Positions 4,150 to 30,935 of a stretch of 64,000 nucleotides of DNA are shown piece after piece. Location of the stretch: the NCBI GenBank assembly GCA_018823045.1, contig JAHJIX010000017.1, forward strand, positions 52,300 through 116,299, written 5' to 3'. The DNA is from Patescibacteria group bacterium. Its GTDB lineage: Bacteria > Patescibacteriota > Patescibacteriia > Magasanikbacterales > UBA922. The stretch's first letter is position 1. Every line of letters begins with the position of its first letter. The translations under genes were made by a program, and so were the position numbers. The notes beneath the pieces are model-generated. The model had not been told where the DNA came from and searched no databases. It saw only the letters and a program-made list of their open reading frames with translations.

Positions 4150-4232
4150 TGGTGTCAAGTGTGTACACTGAATAAAAACCTACAGAACAAATACTCTCAA
4201 TGTATTTTTGTTGCGGAACGTACATTAAACAC

Positions 4233-4250
4233 ATCATTGCGAGGTGGCGT
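4233..4250. repeat. Half-copy (one arm, CATCATTGCGAGGTGGCGT) of the nested-palindrome repeat family
   Basis: Matches the left arm of the 9212-9306 and 12500-12623 elements. No partner arm is present. Confidence 0.5.
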
Positions 4251-9211: not shown

Positions 9212-9306
9212 ACGTCATTGCGAGGTGGCGATAGCACAGCGCGGCAATCCCATGGTTTTTGCACGGAAGAATGAGATTGCTTCGTCGTGCCTCCTCGCAA
9301 TGACGT
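9212..9306. repeat. Nested-palindrome intergenic repeat element (copy B): outer arms ACGTCATTGCGAGG/CCTCGCAATGACGT, inner arms GCGGCAATCCC/GATTGCTTCG
   Basis: Direct reading: the 14-bp inverted termini are perfect and the inner inverted pair is nested. The element occupies the gap between a GT4 gene and the radical-SAM gene. Confidence 0.85.
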
Positions 9307-12499: not shown

Positions 12500-12623
12500 A
12501 CGTCATTGCGAGGTGGCGTGAGCACACCGCGGCAATCCCGTTGTTAAAGAAAAACAATTGTTTTAAGACATAAACAAAGGGATTGCTGCGCCCCGTTTTA
12601 CAAGACGGAGCTCGCAATGACGT
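12500..12623. repeat. Nested-palindrome intergenic repeat element (copy C)
   Basis: ACGTCATTGCGAGGTGGCGTGAGCACACCGCGGCAATCCC…GGGATTGCTGCGCC…GCTCGCAATGACGT. It has the same outer and inner inverted pairs as copy B, with a longer AT-rich central loop. Confidence 0.85.
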
Positions 12624-12885: not shown

Positions 12886-14805
12886 TTATTGATTGTCGCC
12901 GTTGTGGCTACAACCAACAGCGCCTGAAGGCAGCGGTGCGCAGGAATAATCCCCGTTCACCGTGTGGCATATGCACGTGGAAAAGTCCCAAGTGGACACG
13001 CTACACTCGCCTTGCTCGCTCCAGTGCCGGCCGTCAGAAACGGCCTCGTTACGAGAAGCACCTCGGACGGGCCACCACTCAAGGTAGGCCTGGTTACCGG
13101 GGGCGCTCGCGGACGCCGTGATAGTCACTGCAAATGAATTGCAATTGCCAGCTTGAGCGATCTGGACGCAGAGGTCCAATACACAGCTCTCACCGTCAGC
13201 GCAGTCAGCATCGTCCATGCAGGTATCCGCGGGAGGCGGAACCTCACAGAGATTACTGACGCAAACTTCGCCATCACCCTGGCAGGGGTTCTGCGGGTCG
13301 CAGTAGCCGGGGATGGGTAGATTTGCGCAGACACCGCTGTTGCAGGTGTCGTTGGTGCTCGGATCGGAGTCATCACAGTCCGCGTCGGTGACGCAGACTG
13401 CACAACCCTCGTTGATCTCACCGTCACAGTCGTTGTCGGCCATGTCATCACAGAGCTCAGGAGCTCCTGGGTAGACACTCGAGTTTCCGTCTTGGCAATC
13501 GACGTCGGCAGTAAAGCCGTCGCCGTCCAAGTCTTCCTCGCCGGGAGTGAAATCACACGCGCCGGGGGCGTCTTCAACGCCGTCACCGTCACAATCGCTG
13601 TCACAGGCGTTGCCGAGGCCGTCGAGGTCGAGGTCTTCTTGACCGGGGTTGGACACGTTGGGGCAGTTGTCGAGGACGTCGGGCACGCCGTCGCCGTCGA
13701 GATCGCTCTCACAAGCGTCGCCGATGCCATCGCCGTCCTGGTCGCACTGGACCGGATCCGTTGTCGGATCATCGTCGCAGTCGGAGGGGGCGTTGGCTAC
13801 GTCAGGGCAGTTGTCTTCGTCGTTGAGGACGTCATCACCGTCGAGGTCGCCGTCGCAAACGTCGCCGTCGCCGTCACCGTCCGTGTCGAGCTGGTTACGG
13901 TTGGCGAGGATACGACAGTTGTCGTCATCATCGTTCCCAGCGATGCCATCGTGGCCATCGTCAGGGATGCGGTCGTTGTCGTCGTCATCGTCACAGGCGT
14001 CGCCGAACTCGTCGTCGTCGCTGTTCAACTGGTCGACGTTGTGGATATCGGGGCAGTTGTCCACGTCGTTGTCGTGGTCATCGCCGTCACGATCGGTGTC
14101 ACAGACATCGCCGAACTCGTCGCCGTCCATGTTCTCTTGGTTGGGGTTCGCGGTGTCGGGGCAGTTGTCGATGCCATCGCCGATGCCATCGCCGTCACGA
14201 TCGTCCTCACAGACGTCGCCAGTGCCGTCACCGTCGGTGTCAATCTGGTCGGCGTTGGGGACGAGGCGGCAATTGTCGTCGTCTTCGTTTCCGTCGACGC
14301 CGTCATCACCGAAGTCAAGGACGCCGTCGTTGTCGTCATCGTCGTCGCAAGCGTCGCCGAGATCGTCGTCGTCGGTGTTCGCTTGCATCGGGTTGGGCAC
14401 GTCGGGGCAGTTGTCGTCATCGTTGCCGAGGGCGTCGTTATCGCGATCGCTGTCGCACTCGTCGCCGATGCCATCGCTGTCGATGTCGATCTGCCGAACG
14501 CACATGTTCTCGACGCAGAAGATCGGAGCAGCGAACTTGGCGCCATCGGGCCCCACCATGATGGCGGGGATGTCGATGCAGTCGTTGGCGTCGGCGCAGG
14601 CCACGGGGGCCTCGTCGACGAGCGCGGGCTCAGCGGGGGGGTTGGCGGTGCGGGGGCAGTTGTCAGCCCCGATGGGGATGCCGTCGGGGGTCAAGGCCGC
14701 CTCAGAGGCGGACGTGGAAGAGGGACCCTGGCCGGTCGCGCTACACGCGACGGCGAAGATCGAGAAGAGAAACAGGGCGATCATGCGCTGCATGACTTTC
14801 TCCAT
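12886..14805 (-). CDS. Thrombospondin type-3 (TSP3) repeat calcium-binding lipoprotein, Asp-rich
   Basis: 639 aa. Signal peptide + lipobox (LFSIFAVAC|S). More than 10 tandem repeats fit the TSP3 consensus DNCPxxxNxxQxDxDxDGxGDxCDxDxDNDG (e.g. [63 protein letters not shown]). Cys-rich C-terminal domain. ~65% GC. Confidence 0.8.
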
Positions 14806-22819: not shown

Positions 22820-23146
22820 TTATGACATGACAGATGCAAATTCTTGTGCAAAATCATCTAATGTTTGTTTGACAATAGCATCAAACTCAGGCACATTGGT
22901 TTGCCAAAACTGTTGTAATTTTTCTGGTGAAATATTTTCATCTTCAAGTAAGCCTTGAAGTTGCTTTGCAGCAGGTTCATCAATTTTATCAATCAGTGCT
23001 AGACCAATACGACGTTGCGCTTCTGCTACAAACTGTGGAATATATTGTGCGCGAGATTCTTCTGAAAGTGTATCAAAACCATGCTGATCTAAAAGTTGTT
23101 CGATGTATTGATTTAAAAAATCAAACTGCTCATTTTGTTGTGACAT
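22820..23146 (-). CDS. Small (108 aa) acidic helical hypothetical protein, first gene of three-gene module
   Basis: ORF track. Acidic, helical (MSQQNEQFDFLNQYIEQLLDQ…). Confidence 0.45.
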   Translation of the reverse strand: MSQQNEQFDFLNQYIEQLLDQHGFDTLSEESRAQYIPQFVAEAQRRIGLALIDKIDEPAAKQLQGLLEDENISPEKLQQFWQTNVPEFDAIVKQTLDDFAQEFASVMS

Positions 23147-23288
23147 ATGTCTTTGAAGTTAGATAATAATTATATATACGATTATTTTATTGTAAACGGC
23201 TTACTATAGCATAAAAAAGCCCTTTTGTCAATTATAGCATGTTTTGGGTGATATGAACAAGCAAAAAAAGTCTGATTGTGCTTGAGGA

Positions 23289-23385
23289 TGGGATTGCTTC
23301 GTCATTCCGCTTCGCTCCATTCCTCGCAATGACGTGCTTTTATTACGTCATTGCGAGCCCTGTGAAACAAGGGCGCGGCAATCCC
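23289..23385. repeat. Nested-palindrome repeat, circularly permuted copy D (GGGATTGCTTCG…CCTCGCAATGACGT | ACGTCATTGCGAG…GCGGCAATCCC)
   Basis: The same four arm sequences as copies B/C, with outer and inner pairs swapped. It abuts the GIY-YIG gene. Confidence 0.8.
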
Positions 23386-23685
23386 TTACTTCATATCCTC
23401 AATCCATTGTTTATATAAATCCTCCCATTTAGGATTGTTTTTATTAATCAATAACTCTTTTTTTACACGCGAACCTGATTTTAACTGTTTTTCACGACTG
23501 ATTGCATCTTTTATACTGTCATATGTTTCTACATGTACCAACATATGTACATTATATTTTTTTGTAAAATGAGAACCGATTCCTTGTTTATGTTCAATAA
23601 TTCTTTTCTGTATATTTTGTGTTACTCCTACATATAATACGGTCTTTCTAAAATTTGTTAAAATATAGGTATAGTATGTATCCAT
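23386..23685 (-). CDS. GIY-YIG nuclease family protein (small YhbQ/UPF0213-like)
   Basis: 99 aa. YTYILTN…VLYVGVTQNIQKRIIEHKQG matches the GIY-x10-YIG motif with the downstream R and E. Confidence 0.7.
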   Translation of the reverse strand: MDTYYTYILTNFRKTVLYVGVTQNIQKRIIEHKQGIGSHFTKKYNVHMLVHVETYDSIKDAISREKQLKSGSRVKKELLINKNNPKWEDLYKQWIEDMK

Positions 23686-23710
23686 ATTTAATGTTTAGTG
23701 AGTTGTTGTA

Positions 23711-23757
23711 TGGGATTGCTTCGTCATTCCGCTTCGCTCCATTCCTCGCAATGACGT
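23711..23757. repeat. Half-element copy E of the repeat family (identical to first half of copy D)
   Basis: TGGGATTGCTTCGTCATTCCGCTTCGCTCCATTCCTCGCAATGACGT. It supplies the last 11 codons and the stop of the KilA-N ORF. Confidence 0.8.
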
Positions 23758-24104
23758 GGTAAAAAAAAGGGGTCGAATTCAAAAGCAATGTCTTTGTGTG
23801 CAAAAGTGCCACCATATCGACCCGCTTTTGATACGATACCTATGGCATTAACACCTTCAATCCATCGTTTTGATGTCATGACAAAATGATTTAACCCAGC
23901 CTCCATTCTAAACCCAGGGTTATTAATTTGCTCCCATAACCCCAAAAACTGCAAAGTATTTTTATTCCTTAACCAATTTTTAATGACATCATCCATTCTT
24001 TTTGCATCTTTAAATCGTGCAATATCAGTTAACGAAATAAAGTCATGCTCATTTTTAACAAAAAAATTGACATGAATATCTTTTACAATAAGATCTTGTT
24101 TCAT
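23724..24104 (-). CDS. KilA-N domain protein
   Basis: 126 aa. FISLTDIARFKDAKRMDDVIKNWLRNKNTLQFLGLWEQINNPGF resembles the KilA-N/APSES-type DNA-binding domain. The C-terminal PRHCEEWSEAE* is encoded by the repeat element. Confidence 0.5.
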   Translation of the reverse strand: MKQDLIVKDIHVNFFVKNEHDFISLTDIARFKDAKRMDDVIKNWLRNKNTLQFLGLWEQINNPGFRMEAGLNHFVMTSKRWIEGVNAIGIVSKAGRYGGTFAHKDIAFEFDPFFLPRHCEEWSEAE

Positions 24105-24184
24105 ATGCTCCTCCTTTTTTAATATCTAAAAGTCTAACCGTGTCAAATTCGACACGGTTAACTGTATTACTACATTCAGTAATA

Positions 24185-24802
24185 CTACCCAAAATGCCTT
24201 TTTTGCTTTTGCAAAACAAGTACTGCCCCAAATAGCAAACCAGCAAACAATCCAAATAGACCATTTACAACAATATTTGGACGCACTGGCCATTTTGTTA
24301 CTACTGGGCGATTAACAATTTTCATGGTGACGTCTCCCCCAACATACTCCCAACCTTTTGAGACAAGCGCATCAACGGTAGCACCCGCAAAAGCGATTGC
24401 TTGATTTTTATCTGTATTATACGCACTTACCCGCAAGACTCCTGTACCAAATACAACTGAAGATTGTACCATCTTCCCCCATGCTTTTCTTTTTTCTCTT
24501 GCACTGAGTGCATCTAATTCTAATGTATCTAAACTATACCCTGGCTGATCAATGACTTTTGCATAAAAATCATCTGTCGCAGTAATTTGTGCAAGATTTT
24601 CTCCCACACGTTCCGCTGATTTAATAACGGTATACGGGTCGACCCCATAGCGTGTTTTTGAAATAATAAGTACATCAGCATCTGCACGATATTCAAGTGG
24701 CAACACAATAGTCACCAATAAAGAAATAACCATAAACAACGCCCCCATAAGAAAAAGGAAGTTTTTTCGTTTGAGTAAGAGACGCATAGGATGATGATGC
24801 AT
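24185..24802 (-). CDS. Wzz/CpsC-like polysaccharide chain-length-determinant-type membrane protein (N- and C-terminal TM helices)
   Basis: 205 aa, two terminal TM segments flanking a soluble domain (LRVSAYNTDKNQAIAFAGATVDALV). Confidence 0.4.
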   Translation of the reverse strand: MHHHPMRLLLKRKNFLFLMGALFMVISLLVTIVLPLEYRADADVLIISKTRYGVDPYTVIKSAERVGENLAQITATDDFYAKVIDQPGYSLDTLELDALSAREKRKAWGKMVQSSVVFGTGVLRVSAYNTDKNQAIAFAGATVDALVSKGWEYVGGDVTMKIVNRPVVTKWPVRPNIVVNGLFGLFAGLLFGAVLVLQKQKRHFG

Positions 24803-24900
24803 ATACTTGTAATAAAAAATAAATGATAGATTTATAATAATATTATAGCATTTTTTTTGTTTTGATGCGAGAGGACATAGAAAAACATAATTTATCTCTC

Positions 24901-24983
24901 ACGTCATTGCGAGTGTAGCGAAGCAATCCCGCACTTTAATACCCTAAACATTGAGATTGCCGCGCTGTGCTAACGCCAGCTCG
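24901..24983. repeat. Nested-palindrome repeat copy F (variant with inner arms swapped: CGAAGCAATCCC … GATTGCCGCG)
   Basis: ACGTCATTGCGAGTGTAGCGAAGCAATCCC…GATTGCCGCGCTGTGCTAACGCCAGCTCGCAATGAC. Confidence 0.85.
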
Positions 24984-25059
24984 CAATGACATATATTTTT
25001 TTTGACAAAATAAATAATTCATGTTAATCTAAAGTTAATCTATATATAAACTTCAGAAT

Positions 25060-25287
25060 ATGCAAAAAACATACCCTATTATTGGCGTAAAAGAGTTGCG
25101 AGAAAATTTAAATTTCTATATTCAACAAATAAATGAAGGGCACAGCTTCACCATTGTAAAAAGATCAAAGCCTGTTTTTCATATAACCCCAATACAAGAA
25201 GATGAAGCATGGGAACAAGTCGCTGATTTTACACAAATCCAAACCGGTGGAGTAAACATACAAGACATCTTGTCTCGATTATCATAA
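25060..25287 (+). CDS. Phd/YefM-family antitoxin
   Basis: 75 aa. IIGVKELRENLNFYIQQINEGHSFTIVKRSKPVFHITP is the typical Phd/YefM N-terminal domain. 1-nt gap to the toxin gene. Confidence 0.7.
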   Translation: MQKTYPIIGVKELRENLNFYIQQINEGHSFTIVKRSKPVFHITPIQEDEAWEQVADFTQIQTGGVNIQDILSRLS

Positions 25288-25288
25288 T

Positions 25289-25528
25289 ATGGTCGACAAA
25301 ATAACAAAAACATTACAACGCCTCTCTCCAAAAGAAAAAAAATGGGTAAAAAATATTCTTACACAACTTAAAAAAAAAAATTTGAAACATCTTGATATAA
25401 AAAAGCTAAAAGGAAGAACTGATGTGTACAGAATAAGAAAAGGAAAAATACGTATTATGTTTCGGATGCACAAAGAAGATATCTATTTACTTGCAATAGA
25501 AAGACGTGCAGATACTACATATAACTAA
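25289..25528 (+). CDS. RelE/ParE-family toxin
   Basis: 79 aa. GRTDVYRIRKGKIRIMFRMHKEDIYLLAIERRADTTY matches the RelE/ParE core (R…YRIR-G-YRI…L-I-HR). Confidence 0.7.
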   Translation: MVDKITKTLQRLSPKEKKWVKNILTQLKKKNLKHLDIKKLKGRTDVYRIRKGKIRIMFRMHKEDIYLLAIERRADTTYN

Positions 25529-25547
25529 TATATAAGTATAAAGAACC

Positions 25548-25639
25548 ACGTCATTACGAGTGTAGCGAAGCAATCCCATTGTTTGGTGCATTAAACGATA
25601 AGATTGCCGCGCTGTGCTAACGCCAGCTCGCAATGACGT
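25548..25639. repeat. Nested-palindrome repeat copy G (same variant and orientation as copy F)
   Basis: ACGTCATTACGAGTGTAGCGAAGCAATCCC…GATTGCCGCGCTGTGCTAACGCCAGCTCGCAATGACGT. It shares ~85% identity with copy F over the shared arms and forms a direct repeat with it around the TA pair. Confidence 0.85.
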
Positions 25640-25694
25640 ATATAATAAAAAAAAGAAGAAAAGCATCTTCTTTTTTTTATCTTGAATCTAGCGA

Positions 25695-28154: not shown

Positions 28155-28282
28155 CTTTTTTCAAAAAGTTCCTTACAATTTTACCCATACAATAAAGCAC
28201 TTGTCCTTGCGAAAAAAGACATAAGCTCTGCCACCATTCTCATGTAAATATATTGCATACGATTGTTTTGTGGCAACAGCCG

Positions 28283-28314
28283 GTCACGTAAAAGCCCTAC
28301 CGGGCTCACGTGAC
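28283..28314. repeat. 31-bp hairpin motif GTCACGTAAAAGC…GCTCACGTGAC (inverse orientation of the motif found downstream of ssrA)
   Basis: Its arms are the reverse complements of GTCACGTGAGC / GCTTTTACGTGAC at 28788-28818 and 28893-28923. Confidence 0.6.
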
Positions 28315-28342
28315 GCTCAAAAAAGCTTACGCTTTTTTTCGC

Positions 28343-28760
28343 GGGGATGACAGGCTTCGATAGACGGCAACGTTATCTATGTATGCATACCAAGAGTGTC
28401 ATCTCTTGTAAATCAATGACAAATCGATACGTGTAAACGTTATCAGTCGAGTAAAAGGCGCTATTGCTAACGCATTTAGCATGCCACAACTCGCATCTGT
28501 TGTTGCCTAAATAAGGCTAAACGACCATCGCCATGAAGATACTCGCTATTCATATCCGCGGTGTCAACCATACAGAGTTCGTCTCTGTGAGCGAGCGTAG
28601 AATATATGTGCTGACTGACGCGTATATTTGAACTTCCATCAGTATGTAGTGTGTTTCTTTTTGATATTTTTAAAAAAGCACATGAACCAACAAAATATCT
28701 ATGTATGTAGAGTACCTAGCTAACCCGATCTAGACCCGGGTTCAATTCCCGGCATCTCCA
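28343..28760 (+). ncRNA. ssrA: tmRNA (ssrA)
   Basis: 5' end GGGGAUGACAGGCUUCGAUAGACGG matches the tmRNA 5' consensus (GGGGxUGA…GGxUUCGA…ACGG). 3' end GACCCGGGUUCAAUUCCCGGCAUCUCCA has a T-arm and an acceptor 3' strand complementary to the 5' GGGGAUG, with the G3·U pair. It lies immediately downstream of smpB. A candidate tag frame ends …GCA UCU GUU GUU GCC UAA-A-UAA (28496-28512). Confidence 0.75.
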
Positions 28761-28785
28761 CGAAAAATGGCGCTAGCTATTTTTC

Positions 28786-28974
28786 GTGTCACGTGAGCAC
28801 GAAGTGCTTTTACGTGACCAGTATAAACATACCCGTCCTAGCACGGCGCCATCTCGTGGCGAGCCAATCAAAATGATACAGCAATATTAAGTGTCACGTG
28901 AGCACGAAGTGCTTTTACGTGACCAGTATAAACATACCCGTCCTAGCACGGCGCCATCTCGTGGCGAGCCAATC
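28786..28974. repeat. Tandem direct repeat, 2 × 84 bp separated by 21 bp, each starting with a GTCACGTGAGCACGAAGTGCTTTTACGTGAC hairpin
   Basis: Copies at 28786-28869 and 28891-28974 are identical by eye. They lie immediately 3' of ssrA and 5' of a GIY-YIG gene. Confidence 0.85.
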
Positions 28975-29002
28975 CAACACAAAACAATAAGGAGGAACAC
29001 AT

Positions 29003-29260
29003 ATGTATATTATCTATTTTCTAGAGTCTATCCAAGATAATACAAGACATTATATTGGATATACAACAAATCTAACACAACGCATAAAAACACATAACAA
29101 CGGTTCTGTTTCTTCAACAAAAAGATATAGACCCTGGAAAATAATCTATGCAGAAGCATATATACACCAACAAGATGCACGTGGAAGAGAAAAATTCCTT
29201 AAAAGTGGATCTGGATGGAAATACTTAAAAAAACAGCTAACACATCACTTTAACACTTAG
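29003..29260 (+). CDS. GIY-YIG nuclease family protein (second small YhbQ-like paralog)
   Basis: 85 aa. MYIIYFLESIQDNTRHYIGYTTNLTQRIKTHN (GIY…YIG, R, E/H). Strong SD AAGGAGG 8 nt upstream. Confidence 0.7.
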   Translation: MYIIYFLESIQDNTRHYIGYTTNLTQRIKTHNNGSVSSTKRYRPWKIIYAEAYIHQQDARGREKFLKSGSGWKYLKKQLTHHFNT

Positions 29261-29264
29261 ATCT

Positions 29265-29813
29265 ATGCGAATATCCCGAAAAAAACGCCCAAAGAAATCC
29301 CTAGTCCCTCGTTATAACCTGAATCACAGTATTACAGCAAAAGAAGTACGTGTGCTTGGGGCTGATGGATCAAATGTTGGTGTTATGACTCTATCAGCTG
29401 CGATTTCAATGGCAAAAGACCTAGAACTCGATTTGGTAGAAATTAACCCAAAAGCACTCCCTCCTGTAACACAAATCCTTGATTTCAAGCATTTCAAATA
29501 CCAAAAAGAAAAAGAAATGCGAAAACAAAAAAATAATTCTCATGTAAGCGATATAAAAGGAATTCGCCTTTCTATGCGTATTGGTGCAGGTGATATGGAA
29601 ACACGAAAAAATCAAGCAGTAAAATTTCTTGATCGTGGTGATAAAGTAAAGGTTGAAATCATCCTTCGTGGTGCAGAAAGATACAAAACTCCCCTTGCAT
29701 TTGACGTTATTGGTAAATTTTACACCTTATTACATGAAGAAATGAACGTAAAATACGAACAAGAAGCCCTTCGTCAAGGAAACAAAATTACAGCAATTAT
29801 TATAAAATCATAG
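29265..29813 (+). CDS. infC: Translation initiation factor IF-3
   Basis: 182 aa. N-domain ITAKEVRVLGADGSNVGVMTLSAAISMAKDLELDLVEINPKALPPV and C-domain VKVEIILRGAERYKTPLAFDVIGKF are IF-3 hallmarks. Confidence 0.85.
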   Translation: MRISRKKRPKKSLVPRYNLNHSITAKEVRVLGADGSNVGVMTLSAAISMAKDLELDLVEINPKALPPVTQILDFKHFKYQKEKEMRKQKNNSHVSDIKGIRLSMRIGAGDMETRKNQAVKFLDRGDKVKVEIILRGAERYKTPLAFDVIGKFYTLLHEEMNVKYEQEALRQGNKITAIIIKS

Positions 29814-29889
29814 AATAGTGCACAGCCTCCTATTGACTTAATGGCGAGATATAGTGTATACTTCCTGCGTCTTATCTAAGAAAAATTGT

Positions 29890-30105
29890 ATGCCAAAAAT
29901 AAAAACACACAAGGCAACAGCAAAGCGATTTCGCGCAACCAAGCCAAAAGACAAAGCTAAAGTTAAATTCATGCACGCAACTGGTGGACGTGGACACTTT
30001 AATGGAAAAGAGAGTGGCAATACGGGAACAGCGAAAAGAACTGATGCTAGCGCAGTACGCGCAGATGTTTCAACTATTAAACGATCTATGCCGTACGCTG
30101 CATAA
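29890..30105 (+). CDS. rpmI: 50S ribosomal protein L35
   Basis: MPKIKTHKATAKRFRATKPKDKAKVKFMHATGG… The start is taken at the internal Met of the ORF-track frame. Confidence 0.8.
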   Translation: MPKIKTHKATAKRFRATKPKDKAKVKFMHATGGRGHFNGKESGNTGTAKRTDASAVRADVSTIKRSMPYAA

Positions 30106-30119
30106 TTAATGAAGAATAT

Positions 30120-30464
30120 ATGCCTAGAGTAAAACGTGGTTTAGGACACTTAAAGAAACGCCGTTCACTCATGAAACGAGTAAAAGGATTTCGTGGTGGC
30201 CTCAGAAAATTACAAAAACAAGCAAAAACAGCTGATACACGTGCCGGAATGCATGCATACCGTGATCGTCGTGTAAAAAAACGTCTCTTCCGCCGTCTAT
30301 GGCAAGTACGTATCAATGCAGCTATACGTAACTACGATATGAGTTACAGTGCTTTCATGGGTAAACTCAAAGAAAAACAAGTTGGTTTAAACAGAAAAAT
30401 GCTTTCAGAAGTAGCAGCATCAAAACCAGAAGTGTTTAAAAAAATTATAGAGTTTGTCAAATAA
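30120..30464 (+). CDS. rplT: 50S ribosomal protein L20
   Basis: MPRVKRGLGHLKKRRSLMKRVKGFRGG…RDRRVKKRLFRRLWQVRINAA. Canonical L20. Confidence 0.9.
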   Translation: MPRVKRGLGHLKKRRSLMKRVKGFRGGLRKLQKQAKTADTRAGMHAYRDRRVKKRLFRRLWQVRINAAIRNYDMSYSAFMGKLKEKQVGLNRKMLSEVAASKPEVFKKIIEFVK

Positions 30465-30684: not shown

Positions 30685-30935
30685 ATGTTCGCACATGAGC
30701 AGGAGCACCCCCTCCTTTGCTCCTTTGCTCTGTGTGAACATCATGTTGATCAATACAATCAAACAAAGGTCTCGAGAATGTTCGCACATGAGCAGGAGCA
30801 CCCCCTCCTTTGCTCCTTTGCTCTGTGTGAACATTCTCGAGATCTATAACAATAAATGCCCACTGTATGTTCGTACATGAGCAGGAGCACCCCCTCCTTT
30901 GCTCCTTTGCTCTGTACGAACATACAGTGGGTTTT
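30685..30935 (+). repeat. Three tandem copies of a 57-bp hairpin-forming element (ATGTTCGCACATGAGCAGGAGCACCCCCTCCTTTGCTCCTTTGCTCTGTGTGAACAT). The third is extended and followed by T7, acting as the rplT operon terminator.
   Basis: Copies at 30685-30741, 30778-30834, 30867-30923, with spacers of 36 and 32 bp bounded by TCTCGAGA. The last copy sits in the stem CCCACTGTATGTTCG…CGAACATACAGTGGG + TTTTTTT. Confidence 0.8.

Follow-up and report, generated by a model that had tools for sequence, protein, structure and literature searches.

The best described counterpart of the locus reported here is the Ssn system. SsnA of Neisseria meningitidis is a 94-aa protein made of a single GIY-YIG domain (CDD cd10448), and its gene is flanked by the Neisseria NTS repeat (CGTCATTCCCGCGMAVGCGGGAATCYRG) and by related hairpins called SRM (Chenal et al., Nat Commun 2025, PMC11893778). 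The protein binds the repeat only as single-stranded DNA (ssDNA) and cuts it a few nucleotides upstream, the reverse strand, double-stranded DNA and RNA not being substrates; SRM were found near 71% of the Ssn homologues, on both sides in 42%, and the layout NTS-ssnA-NTS is like that of an insertion sequence (IS) (PMC11893778). Palindromic repeats tagged with CGTC had already been catalogued in 2013 by Di Nocera et al., who described them as being without a dedicated enzyme (PMC3733652). We analyzed a stretch of 64,000 nucleotides of a Patescibacteria group bacterium (assembly GCA_018823045.1, contig JAHJIX010000017.1, positions 52,300 to 116,299), hereafter the window. It carries a small GIY-YIG gene, called ssn below, which stands between hairpin repeats, one of them overlapping the end of a KilA-N open reading frame (ORF). 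Since a single-domain GIY-YIG gene is flanked here by such hairpins, we take the locus, on the strength of sequence comparisons, to be very probably an Ssn/SRM unit, i.e., a small Ssn-type gene between its cognate hairpin repeats, with a truncated KilA-N fragment lying outside.

The likeness to the published system concerns both the protein and the repeats. In each case the protein is a single-domain GIY-YIG protein of ~94-99 aa (below the size criterion of 150 aa) with the same spacing of the catalytic Tyr/Tyr/Glu, and its gene is framed by multi-copy hairpins that have a (C/T)GTC head, an ATT.../...AAT stem and a C after the stem. Flanking hairpins of 20-50 nt stand on both sides, in agreement with the general description of the system, and they do so as well in two related loci, L002 and L008 (L numbers denote loci of relatives). 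The repeats also flank other small gene cassettes. The differences lie in the hairpin, whose stem of 5-6 bp (ATTGC/GCAAT) closes an interior of 12-26 nt, whereas the published one has a continuous 9-bp stem and a 4-nt loop; in the published pattern, which misses the window repeats; and in the host, a member of the Patescibacteria (candidate phyla radiation, CPR).

The CGTC-tagged repetitive extragenic palindromic (REP) elements, including dRS3 of Neisseria and RPE-4 and RPE-6 of Rickettsia, share with the window repeats the CGTC head, which is sometimes TGTC, the A-T pairs at stem positions 1-2, a short unpaired tail, frequent inverted dimers and an occasional overlap with coding regions. They were described with stems of 8-9 bp and loops of 4-5 nt (PMC3733652), dimensions that the window copies do not have, and, unlike those elements as described, the present repeats adjoin a GIY-YIG gene, here and in most of the relatives' loci surveyed below. 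The resemblance to the REPIN/RAYT system (Bertels and Rainey 2011; Nunvar et al. 2010) lies in the inverted hairpin doublets and in a single-copy nuclease gene that is flanked by the same repeats and inherited vertically. The locus was nevertheless not classed as REPIN/RAYT, the enzyme being a GIY-YIG protein and not an IS200/IS605-type tyrosine (HUH) transposase, and the tag being CGTC and not GTAG. A GIY-YIG homing endonuclease of the I-TevI type was rejected as well: there is no second domain, the NCBIfam model of group I intron endonucleases gives 17 bits for a cut-off of 56, and the chromosomal position is conserved. Integron attC sites were ruled out, there being neither an integrase nor RYYYAAC/GTTRRRY ends.

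The GIY-YIG gene and its hairpin repeats

The Pfam GIY-YIG profile matches residues 4-73 of the protein (E=9.7e-15), and no second domain scores above the cut-off. Residues Y7, Y18, R28, H32 and E65 are invariant among the relatives (alignment A2), and the spacing of Y7, Y18 and E65 (11 and 47 residues) equals that of the catalytic Y6, Y17 and E64 of N. meningitidis SsnA (PMC11893778). Relatives at 46-83% identity occur in many phyla. Two of them, L035 (55%) and L053 (57%), have genes flanked by CGTCATTCCCGCGTAYGCGGGAATCCAG, which fits the published SRM pattern and is almost the Neisseria NTS. We argue the membership in Ssn indirectly, from the repeats of the relatives, the single domain, the residue spacing and the layout. 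NCBIfam has no family for either of the two GIY-YIG proteins of the window, a PDB sequence search with these nucleases returned only two UPF0213 proteins with weak E-values, and PADLOC gave only marginal matches for them. A search seeded with an NTS-flanked relative had no Neisseria entry among the best 120 matches, and a promoter sought between the KilA-N ORF and ssn gave no good match. The initial annotation of this DNA had suggested that the GIY-YIG protein may be the nuclease tied to the repeat; both the Ssn/SRM association of the literature (PMC11893778) and our survey of 80 loci are in line with this idea.

The repeats around ssn belong to a family with 11 full copies and one head-only fragment in the window (Table 1). 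On the strand that bears CGTC, the copies read CGTCATTGCGAG, then a variable part of 8-24 nt, then GCAATC(C/T)(C/T), or, in a shorter notation, CGTCATTGCGAG-[variable]-GCAATCC. All 11 copies start with CGTC or TGTC followed by ATT, the TGTC head occurring once, and one copy reads ATTACGAG. The core 11-mer TCGCAATGACG was found 12 times in the window with at most one mismatch, for 0.81 expected. The resulting architecture consists of an unpaired CGTC head and a short ATTGC/GCAAT stem, which encloses the variable interior and is immediately followed by a C. Folding as ssDNA predicts stems and interiors of the sizes given above, often with a second small hairpin; for SRM_x, the ATTGC/GCAAT stem together with an inner hairpin is predicted at -8.9 kcal/mol. 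Away from the GIY-YIG locus, the repeats form four doublets with facing tails, at ~9.2, 12.5, 24.9 and 25.6 kb. An Rfam scan of the window matched only the transfer-messenger RNA (tmRNA) and one tRNA.

Three copies surround the gene. SRM_x directly abuts the stop codon of ssn, copy 2 of SRM_y lies 24 nt upstream of its ATG, and together they frame it with their CGTC heads pointing outward, in the layout repeat(+)-gene-repeat(-) relative to the gene. Copy 1 of SRM_y is an extra copy, 11 nt (23335-23345) past SRM_x. A 47-bp module had been reported on either side of the gene, and it is indeed there, with coordinates shifted by one base: the 47-mer GGGATTGC...AATGACGTG occurs twice without mismatch (23290-23336 and 23712-23758), for 0 occurrences expected in shuffles, within an exact identity of 49 bp. 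This identity takes in the repeat and exactly 2 further nt at either end, and the other copies of the window are at most 86% alike. Because it covers one repeat unit and 2 nt per side, the identity shows what appears to be either the recent copying of a single repeat unit or gene conversion between units. Its boundary, 2 nt 5' of CGTC, is close to the cut site of Neisseria SsnA, and by analogy cleavage may take place here too. The ~20 nt that follow the tail of SRM_y copy 1 on the CGTC-bearing strand resemble the 5' leader of ssn in L002 (p=0.0016 against shuffles).

The repeats were also seen in other settings. The version CGTCATTGCGAGGAGGCACGACGAAGCAATC is identical in the window (9275-9305), in L008 (1233-1264) and in a metagenome-assembled genome of Flavobacterium (L068), and the interiors can apparently be grouped into a small number of types that are conserved from phylum to phylum. 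Many copies contain GCGAAGC, which forms a very stable DNA mini-hairpin. The two 97-nt doublets at ~24.9 and 25.6 kb enclose a toxin-antitoxin cassette, whose antitoxin gene is Phd/YefM-like (25060-25287) and whose toxin gene is ParE/RelE-like (25289-25528). L002, a syntenic relative, retains of it only an antitoxin-like gene of 67 aa, which is inverted and adjoins a single SRM, and this suggests a rearrangement between inverted repeats.

Table 1. Positions in the window of the GIY-YIG gene, the hairpin repeats and the parts of the KilA-N ORF.
Feature	Position	Strand or copies	Remarks
Partial SRM, head only	4232..4250	+	CATCATTGCGAGGTGGCGT; family D17
SRM doublet	9213..9305	9213-9251 (+), 9273-9305 (-)	tails facing
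SRM doublet	12501..12622	12501-12539 (+), 12579-12622 (-)	
SRM_y copy 1	23288..23336	-	100% identical to copy 2 over 49 bp; family D18
SRM_x	23346..23385	+	third family member, different interior, inverted relative to SRM_y
ssn-like gene	23386..23685	-	predicted 99-aa single-domain GIY-YIG nuclease
SRM_y copy 2	23710..23758	-	upstream of ssn; core CGTCATTGCGAGGAATGGAGCGAAGCGGAATGACGAAGCAATCCC = 23712-23756
Non-homologous tail of the KilA-N ORF	23724..23774	-	DPFFLPRHCEEWSEAE, then stop; 16-nt filler 23759-23774, then SRM_y copy 2
Putative KilA-N gene fragment, homologous part	23775..24104	-	residues 1-110
SRM doublet, left flank of Phd/ParE-like cassette	24900..24996	24902-24930 (+), 24953-24991 (-, TGTC head)	
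SRM doublet, right flank of Phd/ParE-like cassette	25547..25643	25549-25577 (+), 25600-25638 (-)	86% identical to left; both of family D8

Hairpins beside related genes in other bacteria

We surveyed 80 loci, one for each of 80 species, with genes for relatives of the protein at 46-60% identity, in Bacteroidota, Chloroflexota, Cyanobacteria, Ignavibacteria, Nitrospirota, Pseudomonadota, Bacillota, Patescibacteria and others. Hairpins were detected as HGTC, a 5-nt stem, 4-45 nt, the complementary 5 nt and a C, the controls being shuffles, the density near versus far from the gene, and the subfamily of the second GIY-YIG protein of the window. Of the 80 loci, 68 have at least one HGTC-tagged hairpin at most 200 bp away from the gene, and 49 have them on both sides. 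Their density is 6.2 per kb near the gene, compared with 0.81 per kb in the remaining DNA of the loci; the detector finds ~0.17 per kb in shuffles of the window. Of the nearest upstream copies of 59 loci, 47 point the same way as the gene, and of the nearest downstream copies of 58 loci, 39 point the other way; the median distances are 38 and 30 nt, respectively. The usual layout is repeat(+)-gene-repeat(-), as it is in the window. The negative control, 16 loci of the other GIY-YIG subfamily, had no SRM-like hairpin near the gene.

The pairing of these hairpins is supported by covariation, because the three bases that follow the heads change together with the tail triplets. There are 325 HGTCAT heads near the genes, and 61% of them are followed within 55 nt by the complementary triplet and ATC, compared with 0.9% for non-matching triplets; the covariation spans more than 10 stem types and comes from a test that presupposes no pairing. 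The type of the window, ATTGC/GCAAT, is the commonest near the relatives' genes (98 of ~197 hairpins). In the gammaproteobacterial locus L035 (2255-2310), the ssn ORF itself enters the NTS-type repeat that lies downstream, and takes from this repeat its final residues (...GFPRTRE) and stop codon.

The KilA-N reading frame and the history of the locus

The KilA-N ORF (23724-24104, minus strand) encodes 126 aa and ends with ...FEFDPFFLPRHCEEWSEAE (also written ...AFEFDPFFLPRHCEEWSEAE) and a stop codon. Codons from P116 to the stop are inside repeat copy 2, P116 being CCA, whose final two bases are the CA before CGTC. The observation, made in the initial annotation, that the last 11 codons and the stop are encoded within a repeat copy is correct. 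It had called for an alignment of homologues to locate the native C-terminus, and had held the tail PRHCEEWSEAE to be repeat-derived unless homologues turned out to share it. In our alignment with 19 homologues the similarity is strong up to F110 (...HKDIAFEF), after which the homologues go on with ASWISVEFKLYLIKEFQRLK..., for ~100 more residues in the longest rows, and the window reads the tail given in Table 1. None of the 19 has PRHCEEWSEAE, which is repeat-encoded and not ancestral; a repeat-type (RHCE) peptide is found, among the 120 best matches, only in the window's own protein. By tblastn, the homology ends at position 23775, 16 nt before the repeat, and the missing C-terminal part has no match elsewhere in the window. 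The PADLOC profile PDC-S22 is matched over positions 5-121 of 281, over half of the family length being absent, and the Pfam KilA-N profile over positions 12-85 of 107; a full-length protein of the PDC-S22 type has ~280 aa, with a complete domain and a C-terminal region, and the window ORF is not of this kind. Judged by its homologues, the ORF is a 3'-truncated fragment and not an intact gene with a new end.

The comparison with related genomes informs on the order of events. In contigs of Candidatus Magasanikbacteria (L002-L007), a nuclease gene whose product is 83% identical has a Wzz-like gene and a DUF5663 gene as its neighbours, just as in the window; the order is Wzz-like gene, SRM, 20 nt, ssn, SRM doublet, DUF5663 gene, with no KilA-N. 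The similarity between the DNA of the window and that of L002 runs through the Wzz-like gene, breaks, resumes in the tail of the upstream SRM (GCAATCCCAT) and continues through the nuclease gene. L008, whose nuclease is 73% identical, has the same frame SRM(+)-gene-SRM(-), again with no KilA-N. Because the relatives carry the repeat at the same spot without KilA-N, the position of the repeat-nuclease unit is, on this comparative evidence, a resident one, inherited vertically at the chromosomal site. The interior of the upstream SRM is CTGCCGATAGGACAG in both L002 and L008; the window has there the interior of SRM_y, the same as in the extra downstream copy. In the lineage of the window the interior of the upstream repeat is, by all appearances, replaced by recent copying or conversion. 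Between the KilA-N fragment, which is outside the repeat, and the CGTC of the repeat head there are 18 nt. Next to the upstream SRM head of L008 there is an abutting ORF (400-910) that is a fragment of the RhuM family (profile positions 15-70 of 252). The two cases, KilA-N and RhuM (n=2), give only a hint that foreign DNA is joined and cut down at repeat heads.

We propose the following course of events. By homology with Neisseria SsnA, we expect the Ssn-type protein to bind the single-stranded form of the repeat and no other, and to cut on the 5' side of CGTC, a few nucleotides away from this head. The frame made of repeat, gene and repeat would have been inherited vertically at this chromosomal position, and the KilA-N ORF would be the 3'-truncated piece of a foreign gene, of phage or defence type, lying outside the upstream repeat. 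Without an end of its own, it would be read through the 16-nt filler into the repeat until a stop codon is met, and its PRHCEEWSEAE tail would be the product of this accidental read-through.

Several points weigh against this account. The published SRM pattern, HGTCWYN(0-2)YYVSBRHN(0-5)WNVSBRGN(0-2)RNCYNB, has no match in the whole window and, among the 80 loci of the relatives, finds only 5, L035 and L053 included; calling the window repeats SRMs depends on a broader definition than this pattern. The ssDNA fold energies of single copies beat those of shuffles only modestly (z from -0.4 to -2.5). As regards the KilA-N ORF, it could have been gained in the lineage of the window or lost in the relatives. 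It could also be a domain-only protein that is tolerated, rather than dead DNA, because a 118-aa KilA-N homologue on a 187-kb contig (L108, 1501-1857) ends at the same final residue (…DIAFEF) with no repeat nearby. The coding sequence of L108 contains GACATTGCGTTTGAG, which resembles the repeat head GTCATTGCGAG.

A different history would be that of an autonomous IS-like element, made of the inverted repeats and a GIY-YIG 'transposase', which jumped into an intact KilA-N gene and removed its 3' end. The inverted SRMs with their outward heads do resemble terminal inverted repeats, KilA-N is truncated beside one of these ends, and Chenal et al. (PMC11893778) themselves remark on the IS-like architecture. 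Moreover, the spacer of the L002 doublet resembles the 5' leader of ssn in L008, ATG included (p=0.0005), as if the coding sequence had been deleted, and this hints that some doublets may be ssn units without their coding sequence; when leaders and spacers were compared over 9 loci, however, only 4 of 18 comparisons had a rank of at most 0.05, with a mean z of 0.55. We consider such a jump improbable. The unit sits between the same two neighbours in relatives free of KilA-N, and thus was not newly inserted; the 3' part of KilA-N is absent across the unit as well as elsewhere in the window; and there is no target-site duplication, the 49-bp identity being the repeat itself. The proposal of the initial annotation, essentially the same as this one, that the repeat inserted into the 3' end of KilA-N does not fit either, since the ORF is apparently a fragment, the homology stops 16 nt before the repeat, and the repeat is resident in relatives.

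Two other explanations concern the repeats. They might be ordinary REP-type elements that act at the RNA level, as terminators or stabilisers of mRNA, their proximity to GIY-YIG genes being coincidental. The copies are indeed intergenic and often come right after stop codons, and the CGTC REPs were so described before 2025. Coincidence is nevertheless very hard to reconcile with the ~8-fold enrichment of hairpins within 200 bp of ssn-type genes, on their 5' and 3' sides and in a preferred orientation, and with their absence around the other GIY-YIG subfamily (16 loci); the sole terminator-like site in a scan of 23100-24300 is not at a repeat, and SsnA binds the DNA form and not RNA (PMC11893778). 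We give even less credit to the idea that the repeat is a short, conserved coding module which proteins acquire, and that the RHCEEWSEAE tail is thus functional. The initial annotation had raised this possibility, the ORF does pass through the repeat in frame, and REPs within genes are known in Rickettsia and other bacteria. It is rejected by the lengths of the copies (27, 31, 37, 38, 42 and 43 nt, not multiples of three), their variable interiors, their occurrence in both orientations and their nearly always intergenic location. In addition, the other 119 listed KilA-N homologues have no SRM-type peptide, and the KilA-N protein is short of more than half of the family length.

Beyond the assignment to Ssn/SRM, we entertain a broader and still rather unlikely possibility about what the repeats do. 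They may be units of ~45-49 bp that are still being copied, as suggested by the perfect 49-bp duplicate that ends 2 nt before the CGTC head. Their heads may be break-and-join points that capture, truncate or invert foreign DNA, a reading prompted by the KilA-N fragment, by the RhuM fragment that occupies the corresponding spot in L008, and by the toxin-antitoxin cassette that is framed by doublets in the window and has an inverted remnant in L002. The doublets would then be derivatives of the repeat-ssn-repeat unit from which the coding sequence was deleted.

The second GIY-YIG gene and the significance of the locus

The second GIY-YIG gene (29003-29260) encodes a protein that is 39% identical to the first, belongs to a different subfamily and also scores against Pfam T5orf172. 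It follows the tmRNA gene (28343-28763), and the 105-bp intergenic module is tandemly duplicated (28786-28974). The six closest relatives, at 64-71% identity, all keep the same conserved sequence upstream of the gene, the intergenic module containing a hairpin and a GGCRCCRYCTCGTGGCG motif, and ARAGORN confirmed the tmRNA upstream in three of them (L095-L097). The initial annotation had noted that this paralogue, too, is next to repeats, and had asked whether GIY-YIG paralogues are so placed throughout the genome. The idea stands for the Ssn-type gene and fails for the second one, which is of another subfamily, adjoins a different repeat and has no SRM-like hairpins near the gene in any of 16 relatives. 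The 84-bp tandem repeat that had been placed beside this gene is not the adjoining one, a position held by the 105-bp duplication: the 84/89-bp repeat (30685-30923) is 1.4 kb away, past the ORFs at 29265-29813, 29854-30105 and 30120-30464.

Some further observations concern this region and the rest of the window. In the tmRNA region (28155-29002 of the window; loci L092-L097), the conserved intergenic module has a hairpin GTCACGTGAGCAC-GAA-GTGCTTTTACGTGAC and a GGCGCCATCTCGTGGCGAGCC motif, with no match in Rfam. The module between tmRNA and GIY-YIG gene is partly duplicated in L096, and the more distant relatives L099 and L104 adjoin tRNA genes. The flanks of the tmRNA (28301-28354 and 28748-28801) are complementary past the acceptor stem (GCTCACGTGAC... 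with ...GTCACGTGAGC), and may form a stem for the processing of the precursor. The repeat at 30685-30923 consists of three tandem units of ~89 nt between ORF 30120-30464 and tRNA-Asp, each a long imperfect palindrome around GAGCAGGAGCACCCCCTCCTTTGCTCCTTTGCTC, and is unrelated to the SRM family. Finally, GC-rich degenerate repeats resembling GACGGCGACGGC, with a period of ~108 nt, occupy 13499-14493 in a 639-aa ORF (12886-14805), in contrast to the GC content of the window, which is 37%.

The core of the locus is explained by the system published in 2025; what is new is the host phylum, a variant of the repeat that the published pattern misses, and some minor comparative evidence on the copying of repeats and on truncated foreign genes beside repeat heads. 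The pairing of Ssn with SRM is hereby extended to the Patescibacteria. The ATTGC/GCAAT variant with a variable interior, about half of the hairpins by the relatives' genes and spread over many phyla, escapes the published pattern, and because so common a variant is missed, the fraction of Ssn genes for which cognate repeats have been reported is probably too low. The repeat variants are candidate enzyme/site pairs for tools that act on ssDNA. For annotation, ORFs that end in ...RHCEE... or ...IAS... beside such repeats should be treated as read-through into the repeat and not as having genuine C-termini. If the repeats are indeed still copied and their heads break and join DNA, Ssn/SRM would be a GIY-YIG-based analogue of RAYT/REPIN, and one that also shapes small gene cassettes.

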